DNA of 64,000 bases from Enterobacteria phage GEC-3S: the sequence record HE978309; one strand, written 5' to 3'. Positions 3,532 through 57,763 of the stretch are shown piece after piece; the stretch's first letter is position 1, and every line of letters starts with the position of its first letter. Under the pieces are notes generated by a model. The model saw only the letters and a program-made list of their open reading frames with translations. It did no database searches and was not told the DNA's origin. A program made the translations under genes and the position numbers.

Positions 3532-3807
3532 TCAGGACATTGCCCTTTTGAATGCGTCCATTATAACAGTGTTATTTGGCTTGTCAACACGTTTTTGAAC
3601 TTTATTTTTAAATTTTTTGTTGATGTGGTGTTTACGATAAACAACCTTTTCACGGTTGGCGTAAGCCTCGCGTGCGTCTTTTACCATCAACCATGCCTTA
3701 GCCGCATCTTGTCCGCTGATCCCGCCAATCTTCTTAGCAATATCAACAAAATTAAGACCGTGGTCTTCGCGTAGCATGTAAACCATTAACGCTGTTTTCT
3801 TGTCCAT
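3532..3807 (-). CDS. Hypothetical protein (91 aa), translationally coupled
   Basis: Internal ATG at 3807 overlaps stop of upstream gene (TGATG); ORF-track ORF extends to 3915. Confidence 0.45.
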   Translation of the reverse strand: MDKKTALMVYMLREDHGLNFVDIAKKIGGISGQDAAKAWLMVKDAREAYANREKVVYRKHHINKKFKNKVQKRVDKPNNTVIMDAFKRAMS

Positions 3808-4004
3808 CACTTCGCCCCATTGACGATTAACAGGATAGTGATTAGCACCGGAAACTGGATCATGATAGTGCCAATAAACCGGATAAATGCATTTTCTGAC
3901 TTCCACACATGACATGCGACTAGCTGATAGACCATTGTTGAAACCAGAACTAGGATATAAACCGAAAGCGGTGTAACTTCGATTAGTCGGGAAATCTCAT
4001 TCAT
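3807..4004 (-). CDS. Small membrane protein (65 aa, two hydrophobic segments)
   Basis: GAGGTG RBS; hydrophobic runs LSVYILVLVSTMVYQLV and IMIQFPVLITILLIV. Confidence 0.5.
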   Translation of the reverse strand: MNEISRLIEVTPLSVYILVLVSTMVYQLVACHVWKSENAFIRFIGTIMIQFPVLITILLIVNGAK

Positions 4005-17335: not shown

Positions 17336-19387
17336 TTACATTTTAAATTTATCTGGCATTGCGTCTACAGATACCAGATCAGCGATAAGCTGACGTAGAG
17401 TTGCCTTATCTGCTTTCTTACGTTCGGTTTTAGCTTCGCTAATGAAGCTGGAGAAAGACAGGTCAGAAGCAGGTTTAACAACACCCTCACGGATGAATGC
17501 ATCACCGTCCGCGATCATCTCGCCAGATTCTTGTAATGCTGCCAGTTCACTTTTGTTCATAATATGTGCCTCAATGTAATAAGTTTCTTGTGAATCCGTA
17601 GATGCCGTAGCACGAGTTACCGTATCAAAGGATAACACAACACCGCGAGGAAGTAAAATCTCGCATTCTTTGTAAGCAAATGCTTTGTTACCTACTGGCA
17701 ATACAGGGATGTTTTCCGCGCCAGCAATGGAGAAAGCAACATTAGCGCCACCTTCACCGCGAGATCCAGCCATAGAATCTACCCCAGCAACGGCACTAGC
17801 CACGTTTGCATTCCAGCCGCCAAAAATGTTAGGTGCAAGGGAAGTGCTCACGTAGTTTTTAAAGTAAAACGCTTTTTGCTTACGTGCAGTTTCCCACATT
17901 TGAGACCGGAAGTCCATACCACGATACAGAATAGTACCCGGATCAAGTTTAACGCCATAGTTAGAGAAGGCATTATCCAGTGCATCGCACATCTTGACCA
18001 ATTCTTCTGGATCTGCGATTCCCTCAAACTCTTCCAGCTTGCGATCAGTTAGGAAGTTGTTCATATTGATGTATGCTGCATCGGCATATTCGCTCAACAC
18101 AAAACCTTCCGCGCCCGGCAGATCAAGATCAATATCTGCCATCATTTCACCCATGTTGCTAGCAATTGCTTCAAACATACCGGAAGCAACATTACGAAGG
18201 GCATCGGTTTTAATCTGGGTGATATGACTACGCAGCATTTCAGCTTTTACATCTGCTGGCATAGACTGGTCTACTCGATCCATTGCCAGGGCGGTGATCT
18301 TGTTTTCGAATACTTCCTCGCTCATGATTTCTTTTAAGCGTTTGATTGATGCTGCGATAACTTCCGCAGACAACGGATCATATTGATCCTGAACTTTTAC
18401 CAGTTCGCTTACTGCGTATTTTGCATCGGCTTCGCTTTCAAAAATAGTACGCATGAAACCATAGCGAGTGATAATATCACTTGTCCAGTCATTCAGAGAA
18501 CGGGCGGTTGAACGTTCTAAGGCTTGACGGTCAATCAGAGTATTAAACTGTTTCTTAGGTTCTGCTTCGGTGATATCTTCTTCCGGTTTAAGATTAATTT
18601 TTTCTGGATGATTCACATAGTCGCTGTTATAGGTCGCTTGAGTTTTCAGCATTTCTTCTTTAGTCAAACGAGATTTAGCCGCTACGCGTTGTTCTGCTTC
18701 CGCGTTTCGTTCTTCTTCTGACACAAGACTAGCCGCATATGCCTCATCTTTAGTCAGAGATTCACCAGTAGCCTTAGATACCCAGCGATCACCTAAATCA
18801 CTTTCTACTTTAGTGAACAAGGATTCATCAAGTTTAATCCCTTTAATCTTATCAATCGCCATCCCGCGACGCTTGACAACAACTAAAGCGATCTTTTTGC
18901 TGGTCATTACTTCCTGCTGGAATACTTCAAACTTCGGTGTACGACGCACCAAACGCTCTATAACGCGCTTAACCAGTTCGGTCTTACCTTTCATGCGGGA
19001 TACGTTAAAACGGAACATAACAGCGTCTAATTGCGCTTTACGGGCTGTTTCCATAACCACATCAAACGCACTTGCCATAACTGCAATCGGGTTATCGCCT
19101 AGACCATTTTTAAGCTGTACAATACGACCGCTTTTGTTCATTTCGCACAGTACAACATGTGCGGTCTTGTCGCCCATACGAATGATTTTAGGTGTTTTGT
19201 TGGTGAAGTTACAAAGACGGACAATCACATCTTTATCGCGTGTCTGTACTGCAAAAAGCTGTTTAGGATTCTGCTTAGGCTTTAAGCACTGTACCGGAGC
19301 AATACTGCCAAAGTTTTCTTCCTCTTCCGTCAACAGCCATTTCTCGAAAGATTCAATCATTAGATCGTCGATTTCTAAGTTAAACAT
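17336..19387 (-). CDS. alt: Alt ADP-ribosyltransferase
   Basis: 683 aa (T4 Alt 682 aa), T4 position next to gene 54; ILYRGMDFR, NYVSTSLAP, YKECEILLPRG motifs. Confidence 0.85.
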   Translation of the reverse strand: MFNLEIDDLMIESFEKWLLTEEEENFGSIAPVQCLKPKQNPKQLFAVQTRDKDVIVRLCNFTNKTPKIIRMGDKTAHVVLCEMNKSGRIVQLKNGLGDNPIAVMASAFDVVMETARKAQLDAVMFRFNVSRMKGKTELVKRVIERLVRRTPKFEVFQQEVMTSKKIALVVVKRRGMAIDKIKGIKLDESLFTKVESDLGDRWVSKATGESLTKDEAYAASLVSEEERNAEAEQRVAAKSRLTKEEMLKTQATYNSDYVNHPEKINLKPEEDITEAEPKKQFNTLIDRQALERSTARSLNDWTSDIITRYGFMRTIFESEADAKYAVSELVKVQDQYDPLSAEVIAASIKRLKEIMSEEVFENKITALAMDRVDQSMPADVKAEMLRSHITQIKTDALRNVASGMFEAIASNMGEMMADIDLDLPGAEGFVLSEYADAAYINMNNFLTDRKLEEFEGIADPEELVKMCDALDNAFSNYGVKLDPGTILYRGMDFRSQMWETARKQKAFYFKNYVSTSLAPNIFGGWNANVASAVAGVDSMAGSRGEGGANVAFSIAGAENIPVLPVGNKAFAYKECEILLPRGVVLSFDTVTRATASTDSQETYYIEAHIMNKSELAALQESGEMIADGDAFIREGVVKPASDLSFSSFISEAKTERKKADKATLRQLIADLVSVDAMPDKFKM

Positions 19388-19987: not shown

Positions 19988-20506
19988 TTAGTTATTTTTT
20001 AATTGCTCATCTTGCAATAGGGAAATCACATGCTGGCGATGTTCTTCCGATTGAGGAACACCGAAAAAGTTTGTTTTGTAGAAATACTCTAATCGGTCTT
20101 CTCGTGTGCTCTCTTCCATCATGATCGCGGGTAGTCCGAGATTTCGGAAACGTCGCTTTTCTGCTGGCGTAAAATCACTGTAATACAACATAGAATCATC
20201 ATTACCCGCAATGCTAAATTCATCCTTCATAAAGGAGAATATTGCGTTTAAACGCTGTTTACCGTCCACGATTTCGATCTCATAGCGAGATCCATCATCA
20301 ATCTTAGCCATTGCGATAGCACCAACCGGAAAATCATTAATCAGGTTTTCGATAAACATACGTTTGTTTTCGGTGTCCCATACCAAAGGACGCTGATAAT
20401 CTGGGTTCATGTTGATATAGCCATCTTCTAACCACGCCTCATAAACAGAGATGACAAAGTTTTTAGTATTGGTATAGTAACGGCGTTTAGGCGTTAAACG
20501 GTTCAT
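19988..20506 (-). CDS. DUF262 / ParB-like nuclease-domain protein
   Basis: NPDYQRPLVWD ... IVDGKQRLNAI resembles DUF262 DGQQR-type motif; ATG at 20506 with GGAG RBS, adjacent to stop of upstream gene. Confidence 0.6.
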   Translation of the reverse strand: MNRLTPKRRYYTNTKNFVISVYEAWLEDGYINMNPDYQRPLVWDTENKRMFIENLINDFPVGAIAMAKIDDGSRYEIEIVDGKQRLNAIFSFMKDEFSIAGNDDSMLYYSDFTPAEKRRFRNLGLPAIMMEESTREDRLEYFYKTNFFGVPQSEEHRQHVISLLQDEQLKNN

Positions 20507-20507
20507 G

Positions 20508-20840
20508 TTATAGTCTCCTGAATGGATCATCACGTAAATCAATATCTTTTAAGAACTCATCCCATGAATGGCGGATATTGTTCTTAATTCTCCAGATAAG
20601 CGCAGGGATTGAACGCTCTCCCATCTGGAAGTAGGGATCATATGATCCGTATGCCCAATATGCTACTACAATTCCACAATCAGCGCAATAGTATTCTATT
20701 TCACTTGCTGGCGACCAAATTCCATCAATATGATCGGTGATCCTGCTTTCGATGTTATGGCTATGGCAATCAGGGCAACGGATGCAATGACCTTGTTTAT
20801 CGTAATTTGACGTTAGCGAATACTTAAACAATCTCATCAT
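20508..20840 (-). CDS. Cys/His zinc-ribbon-like protein (110 aa)
   Basis: CIRCPDCHSH ... CADCG; ATGA overlap with upstream methyltransferase-like gene. Confidence 0.55.
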   Translation of the reverse strand: MMRLFKYSLTSNYDKQGHCIRCPDCHSHNIESRITDHIDGIWSPASEIEYYCADCGIVVAYWAYGSYDPYFQMGERSIPALIWRIKNNIRHSWDEFLKDIDLRDDPFRRL

Positions 20841-21553
20841 AGATCCTTATTGGCTTCAAATACTGCCTTTGCGAATCCTCGCGGGGTAAGTGACCTGATA
20901 GTCTTTGTTCTGGTTCCTTTCCCGCCTAGCTTAGAATGCTGTTTACTGTACCCTTTATTAATATGCAACGGTTTCTTTTCTGGCATTATAAAGCCTTGTC
21001 CGGTCCATAAGCAAGTCTTTTTCGGGTACATATCACGGGCGGCGATATACTCAGGAAACGTAGGATGTTTATCATCTTCCGGCAAATAACCGCCATATTC
21101 CCACGGATGGAACATGTAATCAGGCTTACGCCACATACTAGAGATAACGCTTACAGGATTCTCTATCATGTAGGGAACTCCTAGCCATTCACCCAAATAA
21201 GCGGTTATTTTAGCTGCCCGTACATCATGAACTTGAATCAACGGTCCTTGTTCTCGTTTCTTTCGTTCAAAGTGTGCAGCGCCACTAACAGCTAAATTGG
21301 TACACGGTGGGAATGCAAAGATAATATCCGGTTTCCCCCATTCAAGGTCCATTGCTCTTTCCAGCCAGTTCAAATCAATCCAGGTGTTTACATAGGTAAT
21401 GTTTGGATGTTCAAATCTGGTATTATACTTTTTGTATGTACCGTGGTCGGCGTCATCCGCATTAAAGCAGACTACCTTATGACCTGCTTTAGCCCATTCT
21501 AGACCCATTATCCCCGATCCATCAAAGTTGCAGAATATTAATTTTTGTTTCAT
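20837..21553 (-). CDS. Compact DNA (cytosine-5)-methyltransferase-like protein
   Basis: Motif I FCNFDGSGIMG, motif IV FPPCTNLAVSG, motif VI MIENP, C-terminal RSLTPRGFAKA in canonical C5-MTase order; only 238 aa. Confidence 0.6.
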   Translation of the reverse strand: MKQKLIFCNFDGSGIMGLEWAKAGHKVVCFNADDADHGTYKKYNTRFEHPNITYVNTWIDLNWLERAMDLEWGKPDIIFAFPPCTNLAVSGAAHFERKKREQGPLIQVHDVRAAKITAYLGEWLGVPYMIENPVSVISSMWRKPDYMFHPWEYGGYLPEDDKHPTFPEYIAARDMYPKKTCLWTGQGFIMPEKKPLHINKGYSKQHSKLGGKGTRTKTIRSLTPRGFAKAVFEANKDL

Positions 21554-30553: not shown

Positions 30554-31052
30554 TATCAATACCCTTCAAATCAGTCAATAATGCTTTTGGAATACGCGTA
30601 ACCGTAATGTCGGCTTTATCCAAAATATCAGCCCAATCACGCCCACCATTTCGATCATATGTGTCGCAATAATATAGATGTTTAATTCCACTGTTTGCAA
30701 TTGCTTTAGCGCAATCTGGACATGGTGAAGCAGTACACCACATACTAGCGCCTTCAATCGATACACCGCTACGGGCAGCAAACAAAATAGCATTTAATTC
30801 AGCGTGGATCTCGTTTTTCTGTGACCATGCACTATGCTCTGACCGTTTTTCAGGGATCATTTTACCTTCATCATCCAGCCAACCGCTTTTATGTGCATGA
30901 CAGCTACAATTTACTTGCCCTGCTGGAGTTCCATTAAATCCAGTAGAAATGATTCGCCCGTCTTTTTCAATTAGTGCGCCTACCTTCCACGAAACGCATT
31001 TAGAGTTCTTTGCGATTAGATAGGCGATCTGCATGTAAGTTTGTGACAACAT
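30546..31052 (-). CDS. cd: dCMP deaminase
   Basis: Zinc-binding motifs HAELNAI and PCPDC; GTGAGG RBS; T4 position. Confidence 0.9.
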   Translation of the reverse strand: MLSQTYMQIAYLIAKNSKCVSWKVGALIEKDGRIISTGFNGTPAGQVNCSCHAHKSGWLDDEGKMIPEKRSEHSAWSQKNEIHAELNAILFAARSGVSIEGASMWCTASPCPDCAKAIANSGIKHLYYCDTYDRNGGRDWADILDKADITVTRIPKALLTDLKGIDND

Positions 31053-31073
31053 AATATAATCCTCACATATTAA

Positions 31074-31277
31074 TTAACCGTATACGCGAAAGTATTCTAC
31101 TGATCCGTCGCTATACTGTTTTACATTGAATGTATTCACACCATGATTATTGCTCATAATGACATATACACTACGACGCTCATCGCTAAACGGGTTAACT
31201 GGTGCGGGTTCAATTTCAACATTAAAACCACGTTTAGCAAGTGCTTCGCCTAATTGCTTGAGTTTATCGGTAAACAT
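31074..31277 (-). CDS. Hypothetical small protein (67 aa)
   Basis: ORF with GGAGAC RBS; TAATG coupling to pseT. Confidence 0.5.
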   Translation of the reverse strand: MFTDKLKQLGEALAKRGFNVEIEPAPVNPFSDERRSVYVIMSNNHGVNTFNVKQYSDGSVEYFRVYG

Positions 31278-32155
31278 TAAAAGTCTCCGTAGTTAACCTG
31301 AAAACATTCTACACCAATTGCGCGGTACATGTCAACCACTTGATCACGGTCATCTACTGCCAACACAACATGATAACGCGGTGCAATTTCAGAGAAGAAA
31401 ATCTCTTTCTTCACTTCATGGTCAGGACGACGATCATTAGTTTCACGTTGAAAGTGATCACTAGGTTCAATACCCTGTTCACGCAGCCATTGCAGAGTAT
31501 CTTCTTCGCAAACATCCTCACGCCCTGAGCATGTAATGATACGATAACCATTATCACGATACAGTTTAAGCATTTCGATCACTTGCGGACGCGGTTTATC
31601 TTCTTTGACCTTTGTCCAGTCAAACGGATGACGACCGCCCTTATCCGCTAATGTCCCATCAATATCAAAGATCACTGCTTTCGGCAGCATGGTATTCGGT
31701 TTGTATACTTCTTGACCCATATATTCCTGCATCAGATAAAATTGGTTGCGCAAATGAGAAAGTGGAATTGCTTTCTCTCCGCGATAGAAATTACGTTTCT
31801 TTAGTGTCTCAAATGATTCATTGAACACTTGTTCAGTATACACCGCGTTAAATTCTTTTGCAAGTTTTTTGTAGAATACACGATGTTTTTCTTTCAGGTT
31901 AGTATCAGAGATAATGATACTTAATCCGCGTGATAGAGTCTCACGAGCAATCATTCTCTGAATAGACTCTACCAGCTTTTCTTTTTCCTTAGTATACTTG
32001 TATTTCAAATGTGAGTCAACACCAAACAACATAAGACGAAGGTCATCACGATTCACATTACGATAATTACTAAACCGTTTACATGTCTCCATAGCCCATG
32101 TAGTTTTACCGGACCCAGAACAACCAACGGTTAAAATCACTTCACATTTCGGCAT
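31277..32155 (-). CDS. pseT: Polynucleotide 5'-kinase / 3'-phosphatase
   Basis: P-loop GCSGSGKTT and HAD motif DIDGTL in same order as T4 Pnk; ATG at 32155 with AAGGAG. Confidence 0.9.
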   Translation of the reverse strand: MPKCEVILTVGCSGSGKTTWAMETCKRFSNYRNVNRDDLRLMLFGVDSHLKYKYTKEKEKLVESIQRMIARETLSRGLSIIISDTNLKEKHRVFYKKLAKEFNAVYTEQVFNESFETLKKRNFYRGEKAIPLSHLRNQFYLMQEYMGQEVYKPNTMLPKAVIFDIDGTLADKGGRHPFDWTKVKEDKPRPQVIEMLKLYRDNGYRIITCSGREDVCEEDTLQWLREQGIEPSDHFQRETNDRRPDHEVKKEIFFSEIAPRYHVVLAVDDRDQVVDMYRAIGVECFQVNYGDF

Positions 32156-32607
32156 TATTTCTCCTTCGGTTTGCACCGTTCCTCATTAAGTTCTTTGCGA
32201 TAATAACACATGATCAACTTACTTTCAAGTGTATATCTCTTAATATCCGCAAGCCAGACTCTGAATTTTTGGGAGTCCTCCCACGACATAGAAACTCTAG
32301 GTTTACCGTCTATTGTATCCACTTTCAGGTCAATGTCAACTTTTTCTATTGGTGCTGGTAGTGGAGGATGTAATTTCGGTTCTTGTGAATAATGGTCCAT
32401 TGTACACGAAGAAAGCACAAATACAATAGGCACAGCGAAGACATGGATTATGGAGGTCTGAAAATTCTTGTGTACTTTCTTAAACATCCAGTGTATCACG
32501 AAAATTGAAAACACCATCAGAATAATAATGCTTGCACCTATCCACAAATAATCAACCAGATTAAAATTGCTTATCTGCTCTTGCGTAGGCAATATTTCTA
32601 TGCTCAT
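32155..32607 (-). CDS. o-spanin candidate (lipobox, Pro-rich); N-terminal extent uncertain
   Basis: Lipoprotein signal MFKKVHKNFQTSIIHVFAVPIVFVLSSC then PPLPAP; full ORF has AAGGAGG RBS and ATGA coupling at 32607; possible internal start at 32487. Confidence 0.5.
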   Translation of the reverse strand: MSIEILPTQEQISNFNLVDYLWIGASIIILMVFSIFVIHWMFKKVHKNFQTSIIHVFAVPIVFVLSSCTMDHYSQEPKLHPPLPAPIEKVDIDLKVDTIDGKPRVSMSWEDSQKFRVWLADIKRYTLESKLIMCYYRKELNEERCKPKEK

Positions 32608-32927
32608 TTAGTAGCCTCCTTTAATTCTTCGGTAAACTCCTTAAATGAGTCATTAAGCTGTTTCTCTACCAACTTGGGTTTTTGTGCTACTACATAGCCT
32701 CGTGTAGCGTCTTTCATTGCTTTGTTTTGTTCTTCTGCAAACTTAGTTCTTATTCCGTACATCTCCTTTTGCAGCGAGTCTACAATCTTCATCTTTTCAT
32801 CTGTCTTTTTCTTATACTCTGTAAATTCCTGATTCAGTCGATCTACCTCCTTTTTATTTTCCCACCACATATTTCCACCTACCCCCAGCAACACAGAGAT
32901 GATAACAATGTATATCAGCTTTGACAT
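32604..32927 (-). CDS. i-spanin candidate (N-terminal TM plus coiled coil)
   Basis: MSKLIYIVIISVLLGVGG TM segment followed by charged coiled-coil region; next to lipoprotein ORF and pseT as T4 pseT.3/pseT.2. Confidence 0.55.
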   Translation of the reverse strand: MSKLIYIVIISVLLGVGGNMWWENKKEVDRLNQEFTEYKKKTDEKMKIVDSLQKEMYGIRTKFAEEQNKAMKDATRGYVVAQKPKLVEKQLNDSFKEFTEELKEATK

Positions 32928-32940
32928 ATTACCCCCAACG

Positions 32941-32970
32941 ACAAAAGGCGGGGAACTAGCCCCGCTTATT
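32941..32970 (-). terminator. Hairpin terminator after rnlA
   Basis: GGCGGGG-AACTAG-CCCCGC; U-run on minus transcript. Confidence 0.55.
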
Positions 32971-32971
32971 A

Positions 32972-34141
32972 TTACCAATCAATCTTATCTGCCGGAATCA
33001 GTTTCTTATAATTCCGTAGATAGTAAGTTTTCATTGAATCCAGAATACGGTCATAATCAAGACCATCGAATGCAATCATCAGACACATGAAAATATATGC
33101 TTGTGCATCACCATGTTTACGCGATTCGATAGTCGCATTGGATGCATATGTCTTTCTGTCTTCTCCCGCGTGTTCGTTATAAAACTCTGTTGCTGTCGTA
33201 AAGGCATTGCGAAGAATAGACCTGAATGCTTCCTCGAATAACTCGATTCGTTCCAGTGCTTCCGGTTCGCCTTCATATGCAGCACGCAAATCATCGGTTT
33301 CGCTTTCTACGACATAGTAGATCAGGTTATTAGGAAACATCGATGTGTTTTTAATGTTATGCACACCAATATACCATTCACTCTTCACTTTGAACAGTTG
33401 ACCGTCTTTAGTGCGTGCAACAATTCCTTCGATACCTTCTGCGGTCCGAACTTCATCAAGAATATTGCTAAAACGCGCTGAATCAACCTGTAACGCATTT
33501 ACCAGATGAGGACGTAGGATTGAATCGGCGAATAGCATTTGATGCGGTACATACTCTCCTGTGACGTTATGGCGTACATTCAGAAGTGTTAGCGACGGTT
33601 CAGAATATTCTACAACAATTCGGTTGCTGGGTGCTGTATATTCAAAGTTGAAAGTATAATCAGACCCAATATCGGCGATCTTAGCGCGTAGATCCGCATA
33701 CTTCTCGGAATACAGAAGACCGTTTGCTCTCTCTGCCTGGCTTGAGTATAAGGCCGCTTTAGACTTCAACTGAACATAGCCGTTATCAATGTATGTGCTT
33801 ACTAGACTACCGTCCATTTTGTCCATGACCATTTCCACATCTTCCGGCTTAAAGCGAGCGCGATCATTCTCACCTAAATTAAAAAACTTCTCCATAGGAC
33901 GAGATGCAATGCGGACCGGACTACCTTTATCGTCAATTTCAAACATGATCCCGCGACACTCTAACGCATCTGGTTTATTCCACATTTCCGGTTTGCTCAA
34001 GTACAGATAACTAAAAATGCGCATACGGGTTTGCATCGCCGTAATTTCATCTTTGTAATAGAACGTATCAGATCCGTCACATAGTGCCATCAGATTTTTG
34101 AACAATGCTAAAACTTTTTTGTTGTTTTCTTTTGTTGACAT
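32972..34141 (-). CDS. rnlA: RNA ligase 1
   Basis: Aligns with T4 Rnl1 (LF.NLM.LC; PDALECRGIMFE; VRIASRPMEKFFNL; KMDGSLVSTY KxDG). Confidence 0.85.
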   Translation of the reverse strand: MSTKENNKKVLALFKNLMALCDGSDTFYYKDEITAMQTRMRIFSYLYLSKPEMWNKPDALECRGIMFEIDDKGSPVRIASRPMEKFFNLGENDRARFKPEDVEMVMDKMDGSLVSTYIDNGYVQLKSKAALYSSQAERANGLLYSEKYADLRAKIADIGSDYTFNFEYTAPSNRIVVEYSEPSLTLLNVRHNVTGEYVPHQMLFADSILRPHLVNALQVDSARFSNILDEVRTAEGIEGIVARTKDGQLFKVKSEWYIGVHNIKNTSMFPNNLIYYVVESETDDLRAAYEGEPEALERIELFEEAFRSILRNAFTTATEFYNEHAGEDRKTYASNATIESRKHGDAQAYIFMCLMIAFDGLDYDRILDSMKTYYLRNYKKLIPADKIDW

Positions 34142-34538
34142 AATTTGTGTTCCATTCTGGTTTAAATTTGGTGATCAAAACAGGTTCTTCGATATCGGCA
34201 GTGCTTATAATATCCTTACCCGTTGGATTCTCAATATATAACTCAAAGCACTGGCGGTAATAGAATGTTACTGTCTTACCTTCCTCTAGCGCCTTATGAA
34301 TATTCTTACTCTTGCGAGTATCCGCTGTTGGTGTTTGTCTGTTAATGCTAGTCCGGTAATAATTGATCCGCTTTCTGAGATTGACAGTCTGACCAATGTA
34401 TACCAGTTCATTATCAACCGCAATAGCGTAAAGAACATTTAAACGGTTCTTCTGAGGCGGTAGAATAACGTCACCATCTTTACACTCTAAACATGAATAT
34501 TTAACGAATCCATAGTTTTCTATTAGCTCATTAATCAT
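34077..34538 (-). CDS. GIY-YIG endonuclease-like protein
   Basis: LYAIAVDNELVYIGQTVNLRKR matches GIY-x10-YIG...R pattern; 3' end overlaps rnlA start by 65 nt. Confidence 0.6.
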   Translation of the reverse strand: MINELIENYGFVKYSCLECKDGDVILPPQKNRLNVLYAIAVDNELVYIGQTVNLRKRINYYRTSINRQTPTADTRKSKNIHKALEEGKTVTFYYRQCFELYIENPTGKDIISTADIEEPVLITKFKPEWNTNYVNKRKQQKSFSIVQKSDGTM

Positions 34539-34588
34539 TATCCTTTCCTCACGTCACAACAAAGGCGGGATTTCTCCCGCCCACCTTA

Positions 34589-34987
34589 TTAACTTTCCAG
34601 AATATCGCGAGCTTCGTTACGCTCCTTGATGATTTTCAGGACAAATTCCAGTTTTTCTTTGTTTAGTGTTCCGTTTTCCATTGCTTCTTTGACGGTAAAC
34701 ACTCCGCCACCTTGCCCGTATACAGTGACAGTGATTTCACCTAACATCGTGGTATGAAAACCGCCAATTTTCGGTGATTCGAAAGAAACAATTACCTCGC
34801 GGACAGTATTACCGTCGTTGATTTCTGAGAGGGTAATGTCGTTTTTGTAGGCGGTTGCTTTAACCATACGGATCAGCATAGTCTGATCTGGGGAGATGGT
34901 CATTTTGTCCATTGCATGTTGCAATGCAGCGTAACCGAAAACTTTAACGAAGTCCAGAACGTCTTTGCGAGTTTGAAATTTAATCAT
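34589..34987 (-). CDS. Hypothetical protein (132 aa)
   Basis: ORF with own promoter and AAGGAGTATCAAG RBS. Confidence 0.55.
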   Translation of the reverse strand: MIKFQTRKDVLDFVKVFGYAALQHAMDKMTISPDQTMLIRMVKATAYKNDITLSEINDGNTVREVIVSFESPKIGGFHTTMLGEITVTVYGQGGGVFTVKEAMENGTLNKEKLEFVLKIIKERNEARDILES

Positions 34988-35020
34988 CTTGATACTCCTT
35001 AGTTGTTTTAGTATTGGAGT

Positions 35021-35050
35021 ATCTTACTACTCCCGTGATATGCTGTCAAC
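35021..35050 (-). promoter_or_regulatory. Sigma70-like early promoter (GGGAGTA...TACTCCC palindrome around -10)
   Basis: TTGACA - 17 nt - TAAGAT. Confidence 0.5.
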
Positions 35051-35057
35051 TGCTTTT

Positions 35058-35207
35058 TTATGCAACCGCAAACATCAACATTTGAACATTCTTGGCTGTC
35101 TGGCTTTCAAAGTTCTGACATTCTTTGATAATGTCCTCTACTTTCTCTCCGGAGATCTCCGCGTAAGTTTCGATTGCCATTTTCAGTACCGCGTCAAAGT
35201 TGTTCAT
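35058..35207 (-). CDS. Hypothetical early protein (49 aa)
   Basis: MNNFDAVLKMAIETYAEISGEKVEDIIKECQNFESQTAKNVQMLMFAVA; GGAGAATCAAATG; below ORF-track cutoff. Confidence 0.45.
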   Translation of the reverse strand: MNNFDAVLKMAIETYAEISGEKVEDIIKECQNFESQTAKNVQMLMFAVA

Positions 35208-35245
35208 TTGATTCTCCTTAAAGTGTATTTCGTTTCGATGGGGGT

Positions 35246-35275
35246 ATATTAATACCCCCGTTATTCAGTGTCAAC
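35246..35275 (-). promoter_or_regulatory. Sigma70-like early promoter with GGGGGTAT...ATACCCCC palindrome
   Basis: TTGACA - 17 nt - TAATAT. Confidence 0.5.
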
Positions 35276-35493
35276 TACTTTTTAATGACAAGTTCGAATT
35301 TTGCTACCTTGCGTCCGCGTTTATTGAAAGCAACCCACGGACGGTTTTCAATGTAGAACAATTCTTCGCCAATAATGAATACTGGCTGATTGTAAAGTCG
35401 ACCCATCAGGTCACGTTGACGAATAGTAGTAGATTCGTATACTTCGCCCACTACAAAGTGTTTGTTGATAGAGTCGGTGCAAATAAATTTCAT
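35275..35493 (-). CDS. Hypothetical early protein (72 aa)
   Basis: ORF with own promoter and GGAGAATCAAAATG. Confidence 0.55.
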   Translation of the reverse strand: MKFICTDSINKHFVVGEVYESTTIRQRDLMGRLYNQPVFIIGEELFYIENRPWVAFNKRGRKVAKFELVIKK

Positions 35494-35522
35494 TTTGATT
35501 CTCCTTTGTTTCTTGGTGGGGT

Positions 35523-35552
35523 ATATTACTACCCCCGTTATTCAGTGTAAAC
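35523..35552 (-). promoter_or_regulatory. Sigma70-like early promoter (GTTTACA -35)
   Basis: GTTTACA - 17 nt - TAATAT with GGGGGTAGTAATATACCCC palindrome. Confidence 0.5.
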
Positions 35553-35558
35553 TACTTT

Positions 35559-35777
35559 TTACTTGTTGTATTCATTCCACCATTGGGTGAGCTTATCAAT
35601 TATTTTTGTGTTTCTATCCAACTTATCCCACCGTTTTCGAGGGTTTATCAACCGGAATAGGTAAGGTGTACTTGTTAAGTGAACTCGGTCAATATAGTGA
35701 TTGATGTACTGCTTTTCGATTCTAAGTTTCATCTTTTTACGATGAAAATATGCAATAACTTGTTCTTCTGTTTCCAT
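35559..35777 (-). CDS. Hypothetical early protein (72 aa)
   Basis: ORF with GGAGGAA RBS and own promoter. Confidence 0.55.
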   Translation of the reverse strand: METEEQVIAYFHRKKMKLRIEKQYINHYIDRVHLTSTPYLFRLINPRKRWDKLDRNTKIIDKLTQWWNEYNK

Positions 35778-35801
35778 ATGTTCCTCCGTCTCGATGTGCG
35801 T

Positions 35802-35831
35802 ATTATGCTATGGTAAGATCCGATTGTCAAC
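35802..35831 (-). promoter_or_regulatory. Sigma70-like early promoter
   Basis: TTGACA - 17 nt - CATAAT. Confidence 0.55.
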
Positions 35832-35841
35832 ACCCAATAAC

Positions 35842-35872
35842 AAAAAAGTCGCCACTATGGGCGACTTTGAAC
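35842..35872 (-). terminator. Hairpin terminator after HAD-like gene
   Basis: A-run then GTCGCC-ACTATGG-GCGAC on plus strand. Confidence 0.5.
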
Positions 35873-35877
35873 AAACA

Positions 35878-36354
35878 TTAATCATGACCGTGATTTGCAA
35901 TATCCGCTCGCGTCTTATCTTTGTGATTTCCTACGTCAAAAACACGATAACCATTTTCACGCAAAACTTTAATCACTTCTGGGTTATCCTCAAAGACTCC
36001 GACAACTTCATCTTTATCAAAGGATTTAATTACCTCTAATTTGATGTGATAGTCTTTACGGGAGTCTGTGCGGCCTCTCATAAAGATTTTATCAAAACAC
36101 ACCCCGTTAGAAATTAACCAATCAATTGTTTCCATGTAAGCATGTGAACTTCGTCCGGTGAGGATGTAAATCAAATGCCCGTTATCGGAAAGAGCATTAA
36201 TAACACGAATTACATCGTAAATGGGGGAATCTCCCCCACATGCCTTGTTATATTCGATCCATGACTCAACTTTATCAAGATTTTCGGTTGGCATCTTTGT
36301 TAGTCGATGTGTTGGATCTGTGATCGTAAAATCTAAATCGACAAAATATATCAT
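35878..36354 (-). CDS. HAD-superfamily phosphatase-like protein
   Basis: N-terminal FVDLDFTITD (DxDxT motif I); overlaps nrdB stop. Confidence 0.6.
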   Translation of the reverse strand: MIYFVDLDFTITDPTHRLTKMPTENLDKVESWIEYNKACGGDSPIYDVIRVINALSDNGHLIYILTGRSSHAYMETIDWLISNGVCFDKIFMRGRTDSRKDYHIKLEVIKSFDKDEVVGVFEDNPEVIKVLRENGYRVFDVGNHKDKTRADIANHGHD

Positions 36355-37511
36355 AGATATTTCCCGAATCGGTTGTAGTCATCGTCTGTTAAATCGGTAT
36401 TAACCTGAGATACCAGATACATAATCTCTACTTCCTGCGCTGCATTCTGTACTTCGTCAGAGTTCAACCATTTACGCATCCACGGTAACGGATGACGACG
36501 AACACTAAACGGGCTTTTCAGTCCGGCAGCACGCATACGGGAATCTGCCAGGTATTCTACATAGGTTTTCAGAATTTCCGGTGACAGGTTAGGAATTGCC
36601 CCCATTGCGAATAGGTGGTCTACCCATTCTTTTTCTTGCTCGACAACATCCAGAAAGATTTTCGTTGCTTCGCCTTCAAGTTCTTCCGCAATCTGTTTCC
36701 ACTCATCACCATCAACCCCCGTTTGCCATTGACGAATAATGTATTGTGTGCCTTTTAAGTGAAGTTGTTCATCACGCGCAATAAATTTCATGATCTTCGC
36801 GTTACCTTCCAGTAAACCACGTTCGGCAAAGCTGAAAGTACATGCAAAGGACACATAAAAACGAATTGCTTCCAGTGCATTGACGCAGTGTGCACACAGA
36901 TAAATCGAAGCCATCAGATCTCGTTTTGTATCTTCAAAAAATCTTCTTGCATCATCTAATGCTGTCTGGTCGTCTCGTTCTTCCCAATAGCGGAGATCTT
37001 CTTTTGCATTCTCATACTTACGAATCCAATAAAGAACATCATCATAATATTTCCCGATAGATTCCGCTCGCTTCATGATAGCAGGGTTATCGATGATCTG
37101 GTCGAACTCACTAGCCGGATCAATGAAACAGTTACGCATAATGTGTGTATAGCTTCGGCTATGAATCGTTTCGCTGAATGTCCATGTTTGCAACCATGTA
37201 TCGAGAGTTGGATCAGATACAATTGGACCAAATGCTGCGGACGGTGCGCGTCCTTGAATAGAATCAAGTAATGTCTGATACTTCAAATTTTCGGTAAAGA
37301 AACGCTTTTCAACGTCACCCATATTAAGATATTGAATGCGGTCGGTTGCAAGTGAAATTTCTTCGGGGCGCCAAAAAAATGACAATTGCTTTTCGATCAG
37401 TTCTTCAAATACTTGATGACGCTGAATATCATAGCGAGCGATACCCAACCCACTACCCAGAAACATTGGTTCGTTCATAATATCAACATGTTCGCGGTTA
37501 AATACGCTCAT
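36351..37511 (-). CDS. nrdB: Ribonucleotide reductase beta subunit
   Basis: Class Ia R2 features (FSFAERGLLEGNAKIMKFIARDEQLH; di-iron ligand pattern); 386 aa; T4 order. Confidence 0.93.
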   Translation of the reverse strand: MSVFNREHVDIMNEPMFLGSGLGIARYDIQRHQVFEELIEKQLSFFWRPEEISLATDRIQYLNMGDVEKRFFTENLKYQTLLDSIQGRAPSAAFGPIVSDPTLDTWLQTWTFSETIHSRSYTHIMRNCFIDPASEFDQIIDNPAIMKRAESIGKYYDDVLYWIRKYENAKEDLRYWEERDDQTALDDARRFFEDTKRDLMASIYLCAHCVNALEAIRFYVSFACTFSFAERGLLEGNAKIMKFIARDEQLHLKGTQYIIRQWQTGVDGDEWKQIAEELEGEATKIFLDVVEQEKEWVDHLFAMGAIPNLSPEILKTYVEYLADSRMRAAGLKSPFSVRRHPLPWMRKWLNSDEVQNAAQEVEIMYLVSQVNTDLTDDDYNRFGKYL

Positions 37512-40435: not shown

Positions 40436-41659
40436 TTATACTGCCATTTGAGCGGTGATCGCTGGATGGCTTTGATAGTTGTGAATTTTAAAATCTTTCG
40501 GAGTCTTTGTCAATACCTCATCTAAAGATTTAAATTCCGGCAACTCAATTGTTGGTTTATCAAACGGAACACGGCTTAACTGTTCCATAACTTGATCAAA
40601 ATGGTTTTTGTAAATGTGGCAATCCCCACACTGATAAACCAGTTCGCCAACTTCTAACCCGCAAATCTTCGCGATGATATGCGTTAACAGTGCATAGCTC
40701 GCTACGTTGAACGGATTCCCTAAAAAGAGATCATTCGAACGCATGAAAAATAAACAACTCAATTTGTTGTCGTTGGAAACATAAAACTGTACCATCGGAT
40801 GACATACACCTAACACAGCATTATGCGTTTCCTGTACGTTCCATGAATCAATGATAATACGACGACTATACGGATCATTCTTGATCATGTCAATAACTTT
40901 TTGTAACTGGTCTTCCCAAATCTTCGGGCGATAGACATATTCTTCATCGTCTTTAGTGCTTGATGTGTCTACGTCCATACTAACAAACATCGTGGTATCC
41001 GGTGCTATAATATCCCCACCCAGATAATCACTATCAAGCAGATAACCGAAATAACCATCATCTACCCATTCCTGGAATCCCCACAAGCAATATGCATCAT
41101 TAACAAAATTAGATTGAGTCTTCCAGTGGTCTGCTACCAGAATATAATCAAACTCTTCATAACGCATACCACGCCAGATAGCACATAAACGGTCTTCTGT
41201 GTCATTGGTTGGCGTAAAGTCTTCTACCCACGGGTGCTTAAATGTATGTGTATATTTGCTCTTAACGCGCTTAATTTTGATTTCACCATGTGGATGAATC
41301 GGTTTGCGTCGCCACGCCATACCATACATATTGCCGACATTATAACCATTGAATCGCAAGGGATTCTTTTCTTTCATATCAAGACAGTTGCCGCGCCAAA
41401 TATCAAAGGCTTCCTCGTCAAACTTGCCGCGTGTAATTTCCTGTAAGCGACGGCGGTCAAGTGATCCCTCCATAAACCATAGCAATTCGCCAATCACAGA
41501 GGCTGTAGCCATCTTTTTAGTGGTCAGTAATGGGAAACCCTTGCTTAAATCAATTCGCATCTCTGCGCCGAATTTAGAGAGCGTACCTACCCCCGTGCGG
41601 TCTTCACGAGGACAGCCATTATCAAGAACATCACGCAACAGTTTCAAATATTCTTTCAT
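40436..41659 (-). CDS. td: Thymidylate synthase with large internal insertion
   Basis: ThyA motifs (REDRTGVGT; FPLLTTKK; ELLWF; DPYSRRIII; CHPMVQFYV; FMRSNDLFLGNPFNVASYALL) in one 407-aa ORF; about 120 extra residues mid-protein. Confidence 0.9.
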   Translation of the reverse strand: MKEYLKLLRDVLDNGCPREDRTGVGTLSKFGAEMRIDLSKGFPLLTTKKMATASVIGELLWFMEGSLDRRRLQEITRGKFDEEAFDIWRGNCLDMKEKNPLRFNGYNVGNMYGMAWRRKPIHPHGEIKIKRVKSKYTHTFKHPWVEDFTPTNDTEDRLCAIWRGMRYEEFDYILVADHWKTQSNFVNDAYCLWGFQEWVDDGYFGYLLDSDYLGGDIIAPDTTMFVSMDVDTSSTKDDEEYVYRPKIWEDQLQKVIDMIKNDPYSRRIIIDSWNVQETHNAVLGVCHPMVQFYVSNDNKLSCLFFMRSNDLFLGNPFNVASYALLTHIIAKICGLEVGELVYQCGDCHIYKNHFDQVMEQLSRVPFDKPTIELPEFKSLDEVLTKTPKDFKIHNYQSHPAITAQMAV

Positions 41660-42939: not shown

Positions 42940-42968
42940 ATTATACACTATTGCGTTACGCTGTCAAC
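42940..42968 (-). promoter_or_regulatory. Sigma70-like early promoter
   Basis: TTGACA - 16 nt - TATAAT. Confidence 0.5.
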
Positions 42969-44134
42969 TCTTTTTCAAAAGATTTTACGATATACATGAT
43001 GGTGCTCAATTCGGACGGCGCTACTGTCTCTGTGTAGCCATCCGGCATATCTTCTTTCGAGATATAGGAAGTTTTACCTTTCATTGCTTCCTTGATTTTG
43101 TTCTCTAATTCTAAGATCTTTTGACCGTCTTGTAAAGTCAATTCATAAAAGATCTCATGATCGAACTTTGAAACACGAGATTGGTTTCTCATGCGCTCAT
43201 GTGTTTCTTTGTTTGTTATTCCAAATTTCACGCCAACAAAGGAATCATTGTTGGTTAATTTCTGTATATAAAGAGTTCCTGTCTTTAATGCCTGATAACC
43301 ATGCTTAGAACACAACGGGCAGCGTGTTCCGCGATTAACAAAATTATCAATAGTTACATCCCATTCATGGTTACGTTCGCATGTCAGAAGTATTCTTGTT
43401 AATGCACCTTTCCACTTTCCTGAAATCCCAATAAATTTTAGTCTGTTGGTTTCGCATATTTTTTCAATTTGTTTTAATCGGTCACTTTTTGTTATTGGTG
43501 CTGTTCCGCTACATTTGCGACACCGACGACCTAGTTTGAACTTATCATAACTTTGTTCGTAAATGTGATTATTAGGACACTCAAATTTAAGTTTAGTTTT
43601 TGTTCCTCTCCATTCCCCAATTATACCCAAAAATTTATAATCTCCTTTATTTTCATTTATATAAGATAAGGAATCTTCTTTATCATGCATCTTGCCCCCG
43701 TTACATAAAGGACATCTTGTTTTTTGATGAATGAAATCTGTATATGTTGGTTGGTATGTGTGTCCGTTTGTACAGTTCATAATGAGTCTTGTTCTGCTAT
43801 TTTTATACTCCCCACCAACAAAACCAACAAATACATCGTTTGTTTCTTGTTTTATTCTTTCTATCACATTGTTTGGGTTTAATCTTTGAGAATCAACCAC
43901 ACATTTCTTACACGAAACTTTTTTCCTGATATTTGCTAGAGTTGATGTGTATTCATGCTTGTTATTACATAATATAAGAGCTTTTGTTTTGAGACCAGAC
44001 CATTCTCCAACAAACCCCATGAAAGAATAACCAACTTCCAAACATGATTTTTTTACAACATTTTCCCAATAGAAGGGAGTTTTCGTGTTTCCTTTTATTT
44101 CTATACGAATCTCATGTGCTTGACGTACTAACAT
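42956..44134 (-). CDS. Four tandem Cys/His zinc-ribbon repeats plus C-terminal T5orf172/GIY-YIG-like domain
   Basis: Four ~45-aa repeats each with C..H...CxxC, then LYIQKL...FVGVKFGIT...R; ATG at 44134 with GGAGGAT RBS. Confidence 0.6.
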   Translation of the reverse strand: MLVRQAHEIRIEIKGNTKTPFYWENVVKKSCLEVGYSFMGFVGEWSGLKTKALILCNNKHEYTSTLANIRKKVSCKKCVVDSQRLNPNNVIERIKQETNDVFVGFVGGEYKNSRTRLIMNCTNGHTYQPTYTDFIHQKTRCPLCNGGKMHDKEDSLSYINENKGDYKFLGIIGEWRGTKTKLKFECPNNHIYEQSYDKFKLGRRCRKCSGTAPITKSDRLKQIEKICETNRLKFIGISGKWKGALTRILLTCERNHEWDVTIDNFVNRGTRCPLCSKHGYQALKTGTLYIQKLTNNDSFVGVKFGITNKETHERMRNQSRVSKFDHEIFYELTLQDGQKILELENKIKEAMKGKTSYISKEDMPDGYTETVAPSELSTIMYIVKSFEKELTA

Positions 44135-44164
44135 ATTTTTATCCTCCGTTGTTTCGATGATTGT

Positions 44165-44193
44165 ATTATACATTACCACATCAGCATGTCAAT
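44165..44193 (-). promoter_or_regulatory. Sigma70-like early promoter
   Basis: TTGACA - 16 nt - TATAAT. Confidence 0.5.
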
Positions 44194-54994: not shown

Positions 54995-57763
54995 ATGGCA
55001 GATTTAAGCAGAATCCAATTTAAACGCACTAGCACTAAAGGTCGTAAACCTGATGCTAGTACGATGAATCCGGGGGAATTGGCAATCAACCTTGCGGATC
55101 AATATCTTCTTACTAAAAATGATTCCGGTGCTATTATCAATTTAAGTTGCCCTCCGGTGTATGACCGTGATGTTACAATGGCGGGTAAGGTTAAAGGTAA
55201 TAATTATATCTTAGGTAAAACCGCCAACTATCTGGAAGATCAGACAGCGCGAGATCTTAACTACTTTGGTGCTTTCCGTACCAATGGTCTTGATGGTTTT
55301 CTCGAACTCACGCTAAACGTTCCTCATTCTTCTGGTGTTCAGCATGGTCGAGGATTTACTTTCCAGTATGGACACACAGGAAACCGTGTAGAAACTTATG
55401 GTTATAATAAAGAAGGACAAAAAGCATTTAGCTATAAAATGTATCACGAAGGTGATAAACCAACACCCTCAGAATTGAACGTTTACAGCAAACAAGAAGT
55501 TGACCGTATGTTTGTTAAAAACGTTAAACTTGCTACAGTTCCTGGTGATATAGTTGACGGTTATTTTAAATTAGCAACTGCAATGATTCCGCAAAGCGGT
55601 CGTAGTGTATTTTTCCGTATTCATGGTGGTAACGGATATAACGTTACTGCATACGATCAAGTTGATATTGTAGAAATTGTTATTCGCAGTGGAAATAATC
55701 GTCCTAAAGGTGTTAACGTTATTGCATATCGCCGAAATACAAACAAAGCATTTGATGTTTTGGCTGTTAATACTTCTGGTGATAACTATGATATCTACGT
55801 GAAATATCAGCGTTATACTGATAACGTTATTGTTGAATTTGGTAAAAGTGTTGATGTTAATCTGGTAGTCCATGACGTTCCAGACTTTGTTGTTGATCGT
55901 CCTGCTGGCGATAATGTTATTGGCGGTCGCGCGGTAACTCTTTTTAACACCGAAAACAAACGAGGTGTGTTGAGTTTTGACGATAACACACAAAATAGTT
56001 ATGATATTGTTCACTTGAGTAATGATAGGGGTACTGGACGAAAATATATTCGTAAATTCCGTAGTAACTATAATGAAATGATCTGGCACGAGACGGTTCA
56101 AGGCGCCAGCTATCGTCTGGCTACTGGTGCAACTGATGTTCAGGAGATTCTAACCGTTGAATCTGTTAGCTCAATTGCTGGAACTCATAAAGGTAATATT
56201 ACTTCTGGCCGTATGCTGTTAAATGGTGGTAGTAATGTTATTACCTTGCGGCGTCCTGCTGGTCAATCCAACCATATTGCGTTTCAAGATAATCGTACTG
56301 GAGATATTACCCGTCAAGGATGGATCGGTTATGCCAATGCTGATACTAACGTTTTTGAATGGTATAGTGATGTAGGTGGCAGTTCTATTCGTCAACATAT
56401 CGACGGACAGATCGAATTTCAGACAGGTAGCATGAAGCGAGTTTATACTAACGGACAATTCATTTCATTATATGCCGATGGCTTCCGTACAGTATATGGA
56501 AACTATGGTTCATGGTGGCGAAATGACGGTAGTAACGTTTATCTGATGAGCACAAAATCAGGCGACACTATGGGTCCGTGGAATACCTTTAGGCCGTTCA
56601 TATACAGTCTCGCCAATGGAAACGTTACTCTAGGTGGTAGCGATGCTGGCAACCATTTAATGCGTCTCAATAATGAAAATCGTCAAGTAGAAATAAATGC
56701 AACAACACATTTAGGGTCTCGATTATATTGGGAACGTAGCGAAGGATCGGCATCTAGATTTTTTATTAAGAATTGGGGTAATGGATCTTCTCGCGCTCAA
56801 GTGTGGGAACTTGCTGACGAGACAGGTTATCATGTATATTCTCAGCGAAACGACGCGGGTGTTCTTCAATTCCGTACTGCTGGTAATTTTGAGACTGGTG
56901 GTGATGCTCAAGTAAACGGGACTTTACGTGTCACCAATGTTCTTCGAACAGATAACCAAATTCAGATTTATCGCGATAACAACAAAGAACTCTGGTTTAA
57001 GGATGCTAATGGTACTAACCGTGGTGTTATCTGGGGTGATAGCACAGGTCAAATGCGCATTCGAAACTATAACAGCGGAGAATTTGACCATGTTTTCCAG
57101 ACTGGTATGATTCGCTTAGAACGTGGGTATGCAAACGGTAGCGACCGTGGTTTGATTCGCGGAGAAGTACAAGGTGGTGCTTGGTCAGAATGGAAAACTC
57201 GCGCTGCTGGCTTATTGGTTGACTGTCCAGCTGCTCAAACTTCCGCATATAACGTATGGAAAGCGACCAAATGGGGTTTAGACCACATCGCGGCAATGGG
57301 CGTTCATGTTCCTAGTGGCGTTATTACTAATGCTATGGCACGTCTTCATATTCATACCACAAACTTTGACTTTAACGCCTCCGGTGATTTCCAAGCAGGT
57401 CGTAACGGTAATTTTAACGATGTGTATATTCGTTCTGATGCTCGCCTTAAAATCAATAAGGAAGAGTATAAGGAGAATGCCACCGATAAAGTTAATCGCT
57501 TGACGGTATACACCTATGACAAGGTTAAATCTTTAACCGACCGTACTGTCATTGCTCATGAAGTTGGTATTATTGCTCAGGATCTTGAGAAAGAATTGCC
57601 GGAAGCCGTAACAACTTCTAAGGTCGGCGATCCTGATAAGCCAGAAGAGATCTTAACAATTTCTAACTCTGCTGTCAACGCTCTTTTAATTAAGGCGTTT
57701 CAGGAAATGAGCGAAGAACTTAAAGCCGTTAAAGCTGAACTAGCGGAACTTAAAAAGAATTAA
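54995..57763 (+). CDS. 37: Long tail fibre distal subunit gp37-like with C-terminal intramolecular chaperone (S74-like) domain
   Basis: 922 aa; C-terminal YIRSDARLKINK ... resembles auto-cleaving IMC domains of phage fibres; position upstream of holin t. Confidence 0.8.
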   Translation: MADLSRIQFKRTSTKGRKPDASTMNPGELAINLADQYLLTKNDSGAIINLSCPPVYDRDVTMAGKVKGNNYILGKTANYLEDQTARDLNYFGAFRTNGLDGFLELTLNVPHSSGVQHGRGFTFQYGHTGNRVETYGYNKEGQKAFSYKMYHEGDKPTPSELNVYSKQEVDRMFVKNVKLATVPGDIVDGYFKLATAMIPQSGRSVFFRIHGGNGYNVTAYDQVDIVEIVIRSGNNRPKGVNVIAYRRNTNKAFDVLAVNTSGDNYDIYVKYQRYTDNVIVEFGKSVDVNLVVHDVPDFVVDRPAGDNVIGGRAVTLFNTENKRGVLSFDDNTQNSYDIVHLSNDRGTGRKYIRKFRSNYNEMIWHETVQGASYRLATGATDVQEILTVESVSSIAGTHKGNITSGRMLLNGGSNVITLRRPAGQSNHIAFQDNRTGDITRQGWIGYANADTNVFEWYSDVGGSSIRQHIDGQIEFQTGSMKRVYTNGQFISLYADGFRTVYGNYGSWWRNDGSNVYLMSTKSGDTMGPWNTFRPFIYSLANGNVTLGGSDAGNHLMRLNNENRQVEINATTHLGSRLYWERSEGSASRFFIKNWGNGSSRAQVWELADETGYHVYSQRNDAGVLQFRTAGNFETGGDAQVNGTLRVTNVLRTDNQIQIYRDNNKELWFKDANGTNRGVIWGDSTGQMRIRNYNSGEFDHVFQTGMIRLERGYANGSDRGLIRGEVQGGAWSEWKTRAAGLLVDCPAAQTSAYNVWKATKWGLDHIAAMGVHVPSGVITNAMARLHIHTTNFDFNASGDFQAGRNGNFNDVYIRSDARLKINKEEYKENATDKVNRLTVYTYDKVKSLTDRTVIAHEVGIIAQDLEKELPEAVTTSKVGDPDKPEEILTISNSAVNALLIKAFQEMSEELKAVKAELAELKKN

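Follow-up and report, generated by a model that had tools for sequence, protein, structure and literature searches.

Enterobacteria phage GEC-3S is represented here by 64,000 nucleotides of sequence record HE978309 (the window), which include the interval from pseT to nrdB, where bacteriophage T4 carries alc and denA, and gene 24, beside which T4 carries rnlB. All three of these genes had been listed as missing in the initial annotation of the window. We find that alc and rnlB are truly absent from it and that denA is present, and that the pseT-nrdB region is an ordinary core-gene arrangement of the RB49 type together with a plastic insert flanked by PeSL elements, which are early promoters with an embedded stem-loop. 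A phage of the RB49-type lineage that lacks alc and rnlB, keeps denA and carries such an insert is, in our judgement, very probably the right explanation of the observations as a whole.

The window is part of the genome of an RB49-type ("pseudo-T-even", genus Krischvirus) coliphage and not of a T-even phage. In megablast searches 57 phage records match positions 31000-37000 at 95-99% identity, all of them RB49-like Krischvirus coliphages, among them JEP8, the closest relative (98.4%), and RB49 (97.6%), and positions 1-63998 are collinear with RB49 94797-160574 with few indels and a nucleotide identity of about 95-98%. Both nucleotide identity and collinearity with RB49-type genomes place the phage in Krischvirus. 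Because the window is collinear with RB49, the T4 map is the wrong yardstick and the RB49 type is the proper reference; the positions at which the missing genes had been expected are T4 positions, and it is the RB49-type order that applies.

The gene order cd, cd.2, pseT, pseT.2, pseT.3, rnlA, denA, four ORFans, HAD phosphatase and nrdB is identical in RB49 (NC_005066), Phi1, JSE and JEP8, and RB49-type phages also have a DprA-like gene adjoining gene 24, as in the window. The window differs from these phages by small indels and replaced segments, such as 43270-44132 and 56544-57241, and by a 327-bp in-frame deletion in gene 27 that is unique to it. With the corresponding T4 region (pseT, pseT.1, pseT.2, pseT.3, alc, rnlA, denA, nrdB) the window shares pseT, pseT.2, pseT.3, rnlA, denA and nrdB, ordered and oriented alike and with products that are 35-50% identical, but it has neither pseT.1 nor alc, neither the nrdB intron nor I-TevIII, an insert of 1.3 kb between denA and nrdB, which are adjacent in T4, and an overlap of 65 nt between denA and rnlA. 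For all open reading frames (ORFs) of the interval the ratio of non-synonymous to synonymous differences (pN/pS) against RB49 is 0-0.26. The lineage has the core genes of T4, which in the window are pseT, the two spanin genes, rnlA, denA, nrdB and gene 24, and is without the accessory network by which T-even phages both make and exploit hydroxymethylcytosine DNA, namely gene 42, the glucosyltransferases, alc and denB.

denA, alc and rnlB

The ORF that lies between rnlA and the 1.3-kb insert ahead of nrdB (Table 1) is denA, which the initial annotation had failed to recognise. Its product of 153 amino acids is 50% identical to T4 DenA over 137 residues (BLASTP, E 2e-47) and matches the crystal structure of T4 endonuclease II (2WSH, E 4e-38), PHROG 1111 "endonuclease" (E 6.6e-52) and the Pfam GIY-YIG family (23.8 bits against a cut-off of 22.6). 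The alignments keep VLY, YIG, RKR and EEP, and the T4 catalytic positions Gly49 (of YIG), Arg57 and Glu118 are conserved, the last of these being Ala in the crystallised T4 endonuclease II mutant (2WSH). Compared with RB49, the gene has 8 synonymous and 2 non-synonymous differences (pN/pS 0.06), and it is already annotated as denA in the records of RB49, Phi1, Cognac and other relatives. We conclude that denA is present, syntenic, catalytically intact as judged by its sequence, and under purifying selection. Since the gene is present, no argument can be built on its loss.

The predicted protein resembles T4 endonuclease II, a tetrameric GIY-YIG nuclease, over its full length and in its Tyr-Ile-Gly and in the equivalents of Arg57 and Glu118, and differs from it by a C-terminal extension of 17 residues. 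This extension, together with an N-terminal extension of 12 residues in RnlA relative to T4, accounts for the overlap of denA and rnlA at 34077-34141; the true start of rnlA may be downstream.

The reported absence of alc, on the other hand, is borne out by every search that was made. The best tblastn match to T4 Alc had an E value of 1.3 in the window and 0.26 in the whole of RB49, phmmer found no match to Alc, and a Pfam scan of the ORFs of the region gave no match to PF17527 (Alc). We also collected 20 clusters of the Alc family (PF17527), none of them less than 48% identical to T4 Alc, aligned 17 and ran the resulting hidden Markov model with filters off on the window and on the RB49 genome in full, each translated in six frames. 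The best E value of this profile in either was 0.53, at 8 bits, compared to 5.8e-89 for the T4 locus that served as positive control. Between pseT.3 and rnlA, where alc is found in T4, there is a spacer of 44 nt containing a hairpin and no room for a gene of 167 amino acids. The absence of alc is thus a real one. Alc stops transcription on cytosine DNA. From what is known of T4 biology, a phage with cytosine in its own genome would destroy itself by making this protein, so that the absence of alc would be the expected state of the lineage and not a local loss.

The gene rnlB is also absent from the window, as had been noted for the position beside gene 24. Here the adjoining ORF encodes a DprA-like protein of PHROG 768, with a weak, sub-threshold Pfam match to DNA_processg_A and a pN/pS of 0 against RB49. 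No tblastn match to T4 Rnl2, the product of rnlB, falls below an E value of 0.02 in the window or of 0.29 in RB49; phmmer found no match to it, and the DprA-like ORF has no similarity to it. Among the genuine ligases of the window only RnlA and the DNA ligase carry a nucleotidyl-transferase motif I, which would be of the KxHGxN type in an Rnl2. One match to T4 RnlB at 17828-18100, obtained by tblastn with a word size of 2 (E 0.023), lies inside the alt ADP-ribosyltransferase gene and is gone at default settings, and was rejected as spurious. In the T-even-type phages rnlB belongs to the accessory genes, and the RB49 lineage has the DprA-like gene next to gene 24 in its stead. There is no link between rnlB and DNA modification. 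The DprA-like ORF has few homologues (6 clusters), and is followed at 2635-3047 by 413 nt without an ORF of at least 60 amino acids and without an Rfam or tRNA match.

DNA modification in the RB49 lineage

The apparent lack of genes acting on cytosine-containing DNA had raised the question of whether this phage modifies its DNA differently from T4. The outcome is right for the lineage, which does not treat its DNA as T4 does, and the premise concerning denA is false. For the present phage, of which the 64 kb of the window were at hand, the absence of 42, a-gt, b-gt and denB is inferred from relatives, because these loci, like gene 56, map outside that sequence. We assembled the complete genome of RB49 and searched it with T4 proteins by tblastn. 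These searches detected nothing homologous to 42, a-gt, b-gt, denB, ndd, arn, alc or rnlB anywhere in RB49, with which the RB49 annotation agrees, and they did find gene 56 (at 49% identity), dam (at 45%), denA and cd. The genes acting on cytosine DNA are therefore missing as far as alc and, in the relatives, denB are concerned, but DenA is retained in the window and gene 56 in the relatives. The sole signal for gp42 in the whole of RB49 was a weak cross-match to Td, the thymidylate synthase, and gene 42 and the glucosyltransferases are not found in the window either. Td was considered as a hidden dCMP hydroxymethylase; it is 407 amino acids long and has an insertion, yet both the catalytic Cys and the Asn that specifies dUMP ("PFN") are in place, and since this Asn is retained the protein is not a disguised dCMP hydroxymethylase. 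The insertion of about 130 amino acids follows "YGMAWRR" relative to T4 Td and E. coli ThyA (gene at 40436-41659, minus strand).

This distribution of genes has been published before. The genes alc and denB share "the same distribution as gene 42", a distribution that leaves out RB49, and denA and 56 are found in almost every relative of T4 (PMC2993671 Table 4, 2010), while Krischvirus has been scored as positive for dCTPase and denA and negative for hydroxymethylcytosine, denB, ndd and alc (PMC12115623 Table 4). RB49 DNA is cut by HpaII and NheI and served as an unmodified control (PMC4041780), so the cytosines of RB49 are unmodified, and high-performance liquid chromatography/mass spectrometry (HPLC/MS) of the DNA of the Krischvirus phage TB34 revealed canonical nucleosides only (PMC13390438). 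Nolan et al. (2006) are silent on these genes. Because the relatives of the window phage have cytosine DNA, the T4 logic, in which host DNA is cut and hydroxymethylcytosine DNA is spared, presumably cannot hold unchanged here.

The gene of the window that had been called Dcm-like plausibly encodes a short C5-methyltransferase-like protein. Its family is very large and consists of proteins about 230 amino acids long, its PPC and ENP motifs do not vary among 43 homologues, and its AlphaFold2 model (pLDDT 90.5) has DNMT1 and DIM2 as its best near-full-length fold matches (TM-score 0.45-0.51). Direct searches of Pfam (including PF00145), NCBIfam and PDB sequences gave no match, and the support is at the level of family and fold. 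At 238 amino acids the protein is without a normal target-recognition domain, and there is no sign of global genome modification by it; HpaII cuts RB49 DNA. Its neighbours include no TET/JBP dioxygenase or glycosyltransferase domain, and instead there is a stand-alone GmrSD_N/DUF262 ORF of 184 amino acids at 19988-20542 on the minus strand (E 4.7e-20, 73 bits against a cut-off of 33), which is hypothetical in the RB49 annotation. In modification-dependent type IV restriction enzymes, GmrSD_N/DUF262 forms the N-terminal domain.

Several points weigh against the explanation preferred here. The four small ORFs of the insert are without assigned function and the phosphatase beside them is assigned to a fold class only; 42, 56, a-gt, b-gt and denB lie outside the 64-kb window, so that absences among them are deduced from relatives; the explanation does not account for the tolerance of a phage with cytosine DNA towards its own intact endonuclease II and towards a gp56 homologue (dCTPase homologue); and SAP (OZ034687.1), a Krischvirus isolate reported to be modified despite lacking the known genes (PMC13390438), is 97.9% identical to the window at 31000-37000, as is TB34 (OX001802.1).

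From the SAP report comes the alternative that the phage modifies its cytosines via a pathway unrelated to T4 gene 42, in which case the absence of alc and denB would be misleading. By HPLC/MS, SAP DNA contained 5-hydroxymethyl-deoxycytidine and alpha-gentiobiosyl-methyl-deoxycytidine, and it was cut by BrxU, a T6-like hypermodification for which no responsible gene, neither a known synthase nor a known glycosyltransferase, was found (PMC13390438, 2026). Such a pathway could draw on the C5-methyltransferase-like protein encoded in the window and on the DUF262/GmrSD_N protein encoded two genes downstream of it. However, seven Tequatrovirus phages from the collection that includes SAP have the same modification profile as SAP does, and SAP is 99.96% identical to the unmodified TB34 (PMC13390438); a mixed stock would fit these results at least as well as a hidden pathway. 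In addition, cytosine-modification-sensitive enzymes cut RB49 DNA, RB49 has no homologue of 42, a-gt or b-gt, Td is by its Asn a normal dUMP enzyme, and no TET/JBP or glycosyltransferase domain adjoins the methyltransferase-like gene. We therefore consider it very unlikely that Krischvirus phages, possibly including the present one, make hydroxymethyl- or glycosyl-cytosine DNA independently of gene 42, with the methyltransferase-like gene at 20837-21553 and the neighbouring DUF262 gene as candidates. If this were true, a genome that lacks alc and denB and keeps denA and 56 would thereby be marked as conditionally modified.

The insert between denA and nrdB

In the RB49-type arrangement that we favour, the 1.3-kb gap between denA and nrdB is filled with ORFs of 132, 49, 72 and 72 amino acids and a HAD phosphatase of 158 amino acids, all on the minus strand; the earlier description of this space as occupied by a HAD-type phosphatase and small promoter-driven genes was accurate. 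The four small ORFs belong to PHROGs without assigned function and have a pN/pS of 0-0.08 against RB49. Each has its own predicted near-consensus sigma-70 promoter with a spacing of 17 nt, and in three of the four a stem-loop formed by a G-run and a C-run lies between the hexamers; the fourth promoter has no embedded stem-loop and is preceded by a separate terminator-like hairpin. Terminator-like hairpins lie at both bounds of the block of small ORFs. At the level of sequence, the three predicted promoters with a stem-loop are PeSL elements. PeSL elements were first described in RB49 and phi1, and are associated with hyperplastic regions where ORFans are shuffled (Arbiol et al. 2010; PMC4122927). 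Like the modules of RB49 and phi1, those of the window combine near-consensus TTGACA-N17-TAnnAT with a G-run/C-run stem-loop, each ahead of an ORFan in a plastic region, and there is no notable difference between them, these being the same elements in a close relative.

The HAD phosphatase scores 50.6 bits against PF25109 (cut-off 27.6, E 2.9e-13) and has the nucleophile motif DLDFT (DxDxT) at residues 6-10. It shows 29% identity to the phosphatase half of PseT of the same phage, and its closest homologues outside Krischvirus are found in Escherichia and Klebsiella siphoviruses of about 50 kb (35-47% identity). The name "polynucleotide kinase" under which it appears in databases is a misnomer, there being no kinase domain in the protein. 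What the phage has in excess of T4 between denA and nrdB is a typical hyperplastic insert, composed of four ORFans with their own early promoters and a horizontally shared stand-alone HAD phosphatase.

As four ORFs of this interval are without assigned function, it could be supposed that alc (or rnlB) is present and has diverged beyond recognition, in ORF132 or in another of the small ORFs. ORF132 is roughly of the size of Alc and is the sole unassigned ORF of comparable size. It has 16 related clusters only among 1.8 billion representatives, and its AlphaFold2 model has a pLDDT of 92. This confident model has no fold match in the PDB and returns only uncharacterised phage proteins from BFVD, and with the profile search negative as well ORF132 was rejected as a disguised Alc. 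Alc proteins form a narrow family of high conservation, with at least 48% identity among the 20 clusters, and their profile gives no signal (best E 0.53); the small ORFs also sit across rnlA and denA from the position of alc in T4, and published surveys find alc only together with gene 42. For an Rnl2 there is no third nucleotidyl-transferase motif I available. We regard the supposition as hardly tenable. That the gene absences are an artefact of this sequence, caused by a deletion or an assembly error, and not features of the lineage can be dismissed as practically negligible: the window does carry its in-frame gene 27 deletion, which is lacking in all 12 of the best relatives listed, but the pseT-nrdB interval and the surroundings of gene 24 are organised in the same way, without alc and rnlB, in RB49 and in 53 of the 57 matching records covering at least 80% of the query.

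Other features of the window and meaning for the lineage

The spanin candidates and rnlA seen in the initial annotation are confirmed, and their coordinates are given in Table 1 with those of the other features. The product of pseT matches Pfam HAD_PNKP (1.7e-52) and AAA_33, and its ATG at 32155 is preceded by GGAG. The next two genes are adjacent and have the makings of a two-component spanin, with a KLIYIVIISVLLGV segment in the i-spanin and an LSSC lipobox in the o-spanin (both read from the translations), membership of PHROG 739 and PHROG 812, respectively, and homology to T4. The lipobox occupies residues 65-68 of the pseT.2 product, which is longer at its N-terminus than its T4 counterpart: the o-spanin ORF has 150 amino acids compared to 99 in T4, with an extra hydrophobic N-terminal segment before the classical signal peptide and lipobox, and an internal Met41 (MFKKVH...) would yield a conventional lipoprotein precursor. 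In pseT.3 the N-terminal transmembrane segment begins at Met18 of the ORF 32604-32978. The RefSeq start of RB49 pseT.3 is a Met that drops this segment, and both the PHROG alignment and the transmembrane segment indicate a start equivalent to 32927 of the window.

Table 1. Coordinates of the features discussed, with the grounds for each assignment
Feature	Position	Strand	Grounds and remarks
Gene 24 (capsid vertex protein)	805-2046	+	tblastn T4 gp24 46% identity, E 7e-116; ATG at 805; RB49p163
DprA-like/SLOG-like ORF, 195 aa, at T4 rnlB position	2047-2634	-	PHROG 768, E 1.2e-60; abuts gene 24
Gene 24.3 homologue (DUF2774)	3532-3915	-	tblastn T4 24.3, E 8e-9; Pfam DUF2774, 9.5e-29
Short C5-cytosine-methyltransferase-like protein, 238 aa (plausible)	20837-21553	-	PHROG 757; PPC/ENP motifs; fold
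pseT, polynucleotide 5'-kinase/3'-phosphatase	31277-32155	-	T4 PseT 44% identity, E 2e-68
pseT.2, o-spanin	32155-32607	-	T4 PseT.2, E 3e-19; PHROG 812 "Rz-like spanin", 1.1e-32
pseT.3, i-spanin	32604-32927	-	T4 PseT.3, E 2.7e-10; PHROG 739, 2.8e-26, alignment from residue 18
Spacer, 44 nt, at T4 alc position	32928-32971	-	GC-rich terminator-like hairpin (32948-32965); no room for 167-aa gene
rnlA, RNA ligase 1	32972-34141	-	T4 RnlA 42% identity, E 1e-90; Pfam T4_Rnl1_C, RNA_lig_T4_1; motif I KMDGSL
denA, endonuclease II (GIY-YIG)	34077-34538	-	T4 DenA similarity; 2WSH; PHROG 1111; 153 aa
Terminator-like hairpin upstream of denA	34563-34582	-	Motif
ORF132, orphan protein	34589-34987	-	PHROG 10173 (function-unknown family)
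PeSL-type early promoter (predicted)	35021-35049	-	Motif; TTGACA-17-TAAGAT, embedded stem-loop
ORF49	35058-35207	-	PHROG 21179; conserved in RB49
PeSL-type early promoter (predicted)	35246-35274	-	Motif; TTGACA-17-TAATAT, GGGGG...CCCCC stem
ORF72a	35275-35493	-	PHROG 14957; pN/pS 0.08
PeSL-type early promoter (predicted)	35523-35551	-	Motif; TTTACA-17-TAATAT, GGGGG...CCCC stem
ORF72b	35559-35777	-	PHROG 18672; pN/pS 0.04
Terminator-like hairpin (35845-35868), then predicted early promoter (35802-35830)	35802-35868	-	Motif; TTGACA-17-CATAAT
Stand-alone HAD phosphatase, PNKP phosphatase-domain type, 158 aa	35878-36354	-	Pfam HAD_PNKP (PF25109); PHROG 415, 5.7e-51
nrdB, ribonucleotide reductase small subunit, no intron	36351-37511	-	Same place in the gene order as in RB49

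Gene 27, for the baseplate hub (10899-11681, plus strand), encodes 260 amino acids compared to 369 in RB49 gp27. The clean in-frame deletion of 327 bp, with its junction at about 10940/10941, removes residues 15-123 relative to RB49 gp27, a segment that is conserved in T4 gp27 as well; the extra 327 bp are found in 12 of the 12 best relatives listed. The sequence could come from a deletion mutant, an assembly error or an otherwise altered sequence. At 42956-44179 (minus strand) an ORF of 407 amino acids, in which CxxC-type motifs recur, takes the place of part of the RB49 "endonuclease" RB49p240, and the stretch 43270-44132 is among the few segments that are not alignable with RB49. Rfam and tRNA scans were run on the whole window and gave no matches.

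The arrangement described here is an ordinary one and was already known, since the distribution of these genes was published in 2010 and 2025 and the cytosine of RB49 has been shown to be unmodified. As a discovery it carries little weight, the absence of alc, denB, 42 and the glucosyltransferases, the retention of denA and 56 and the unmodified cytosine all being in the literature (2010, 2014, 2025), and its practical value is that of a correction, in that denA is present.

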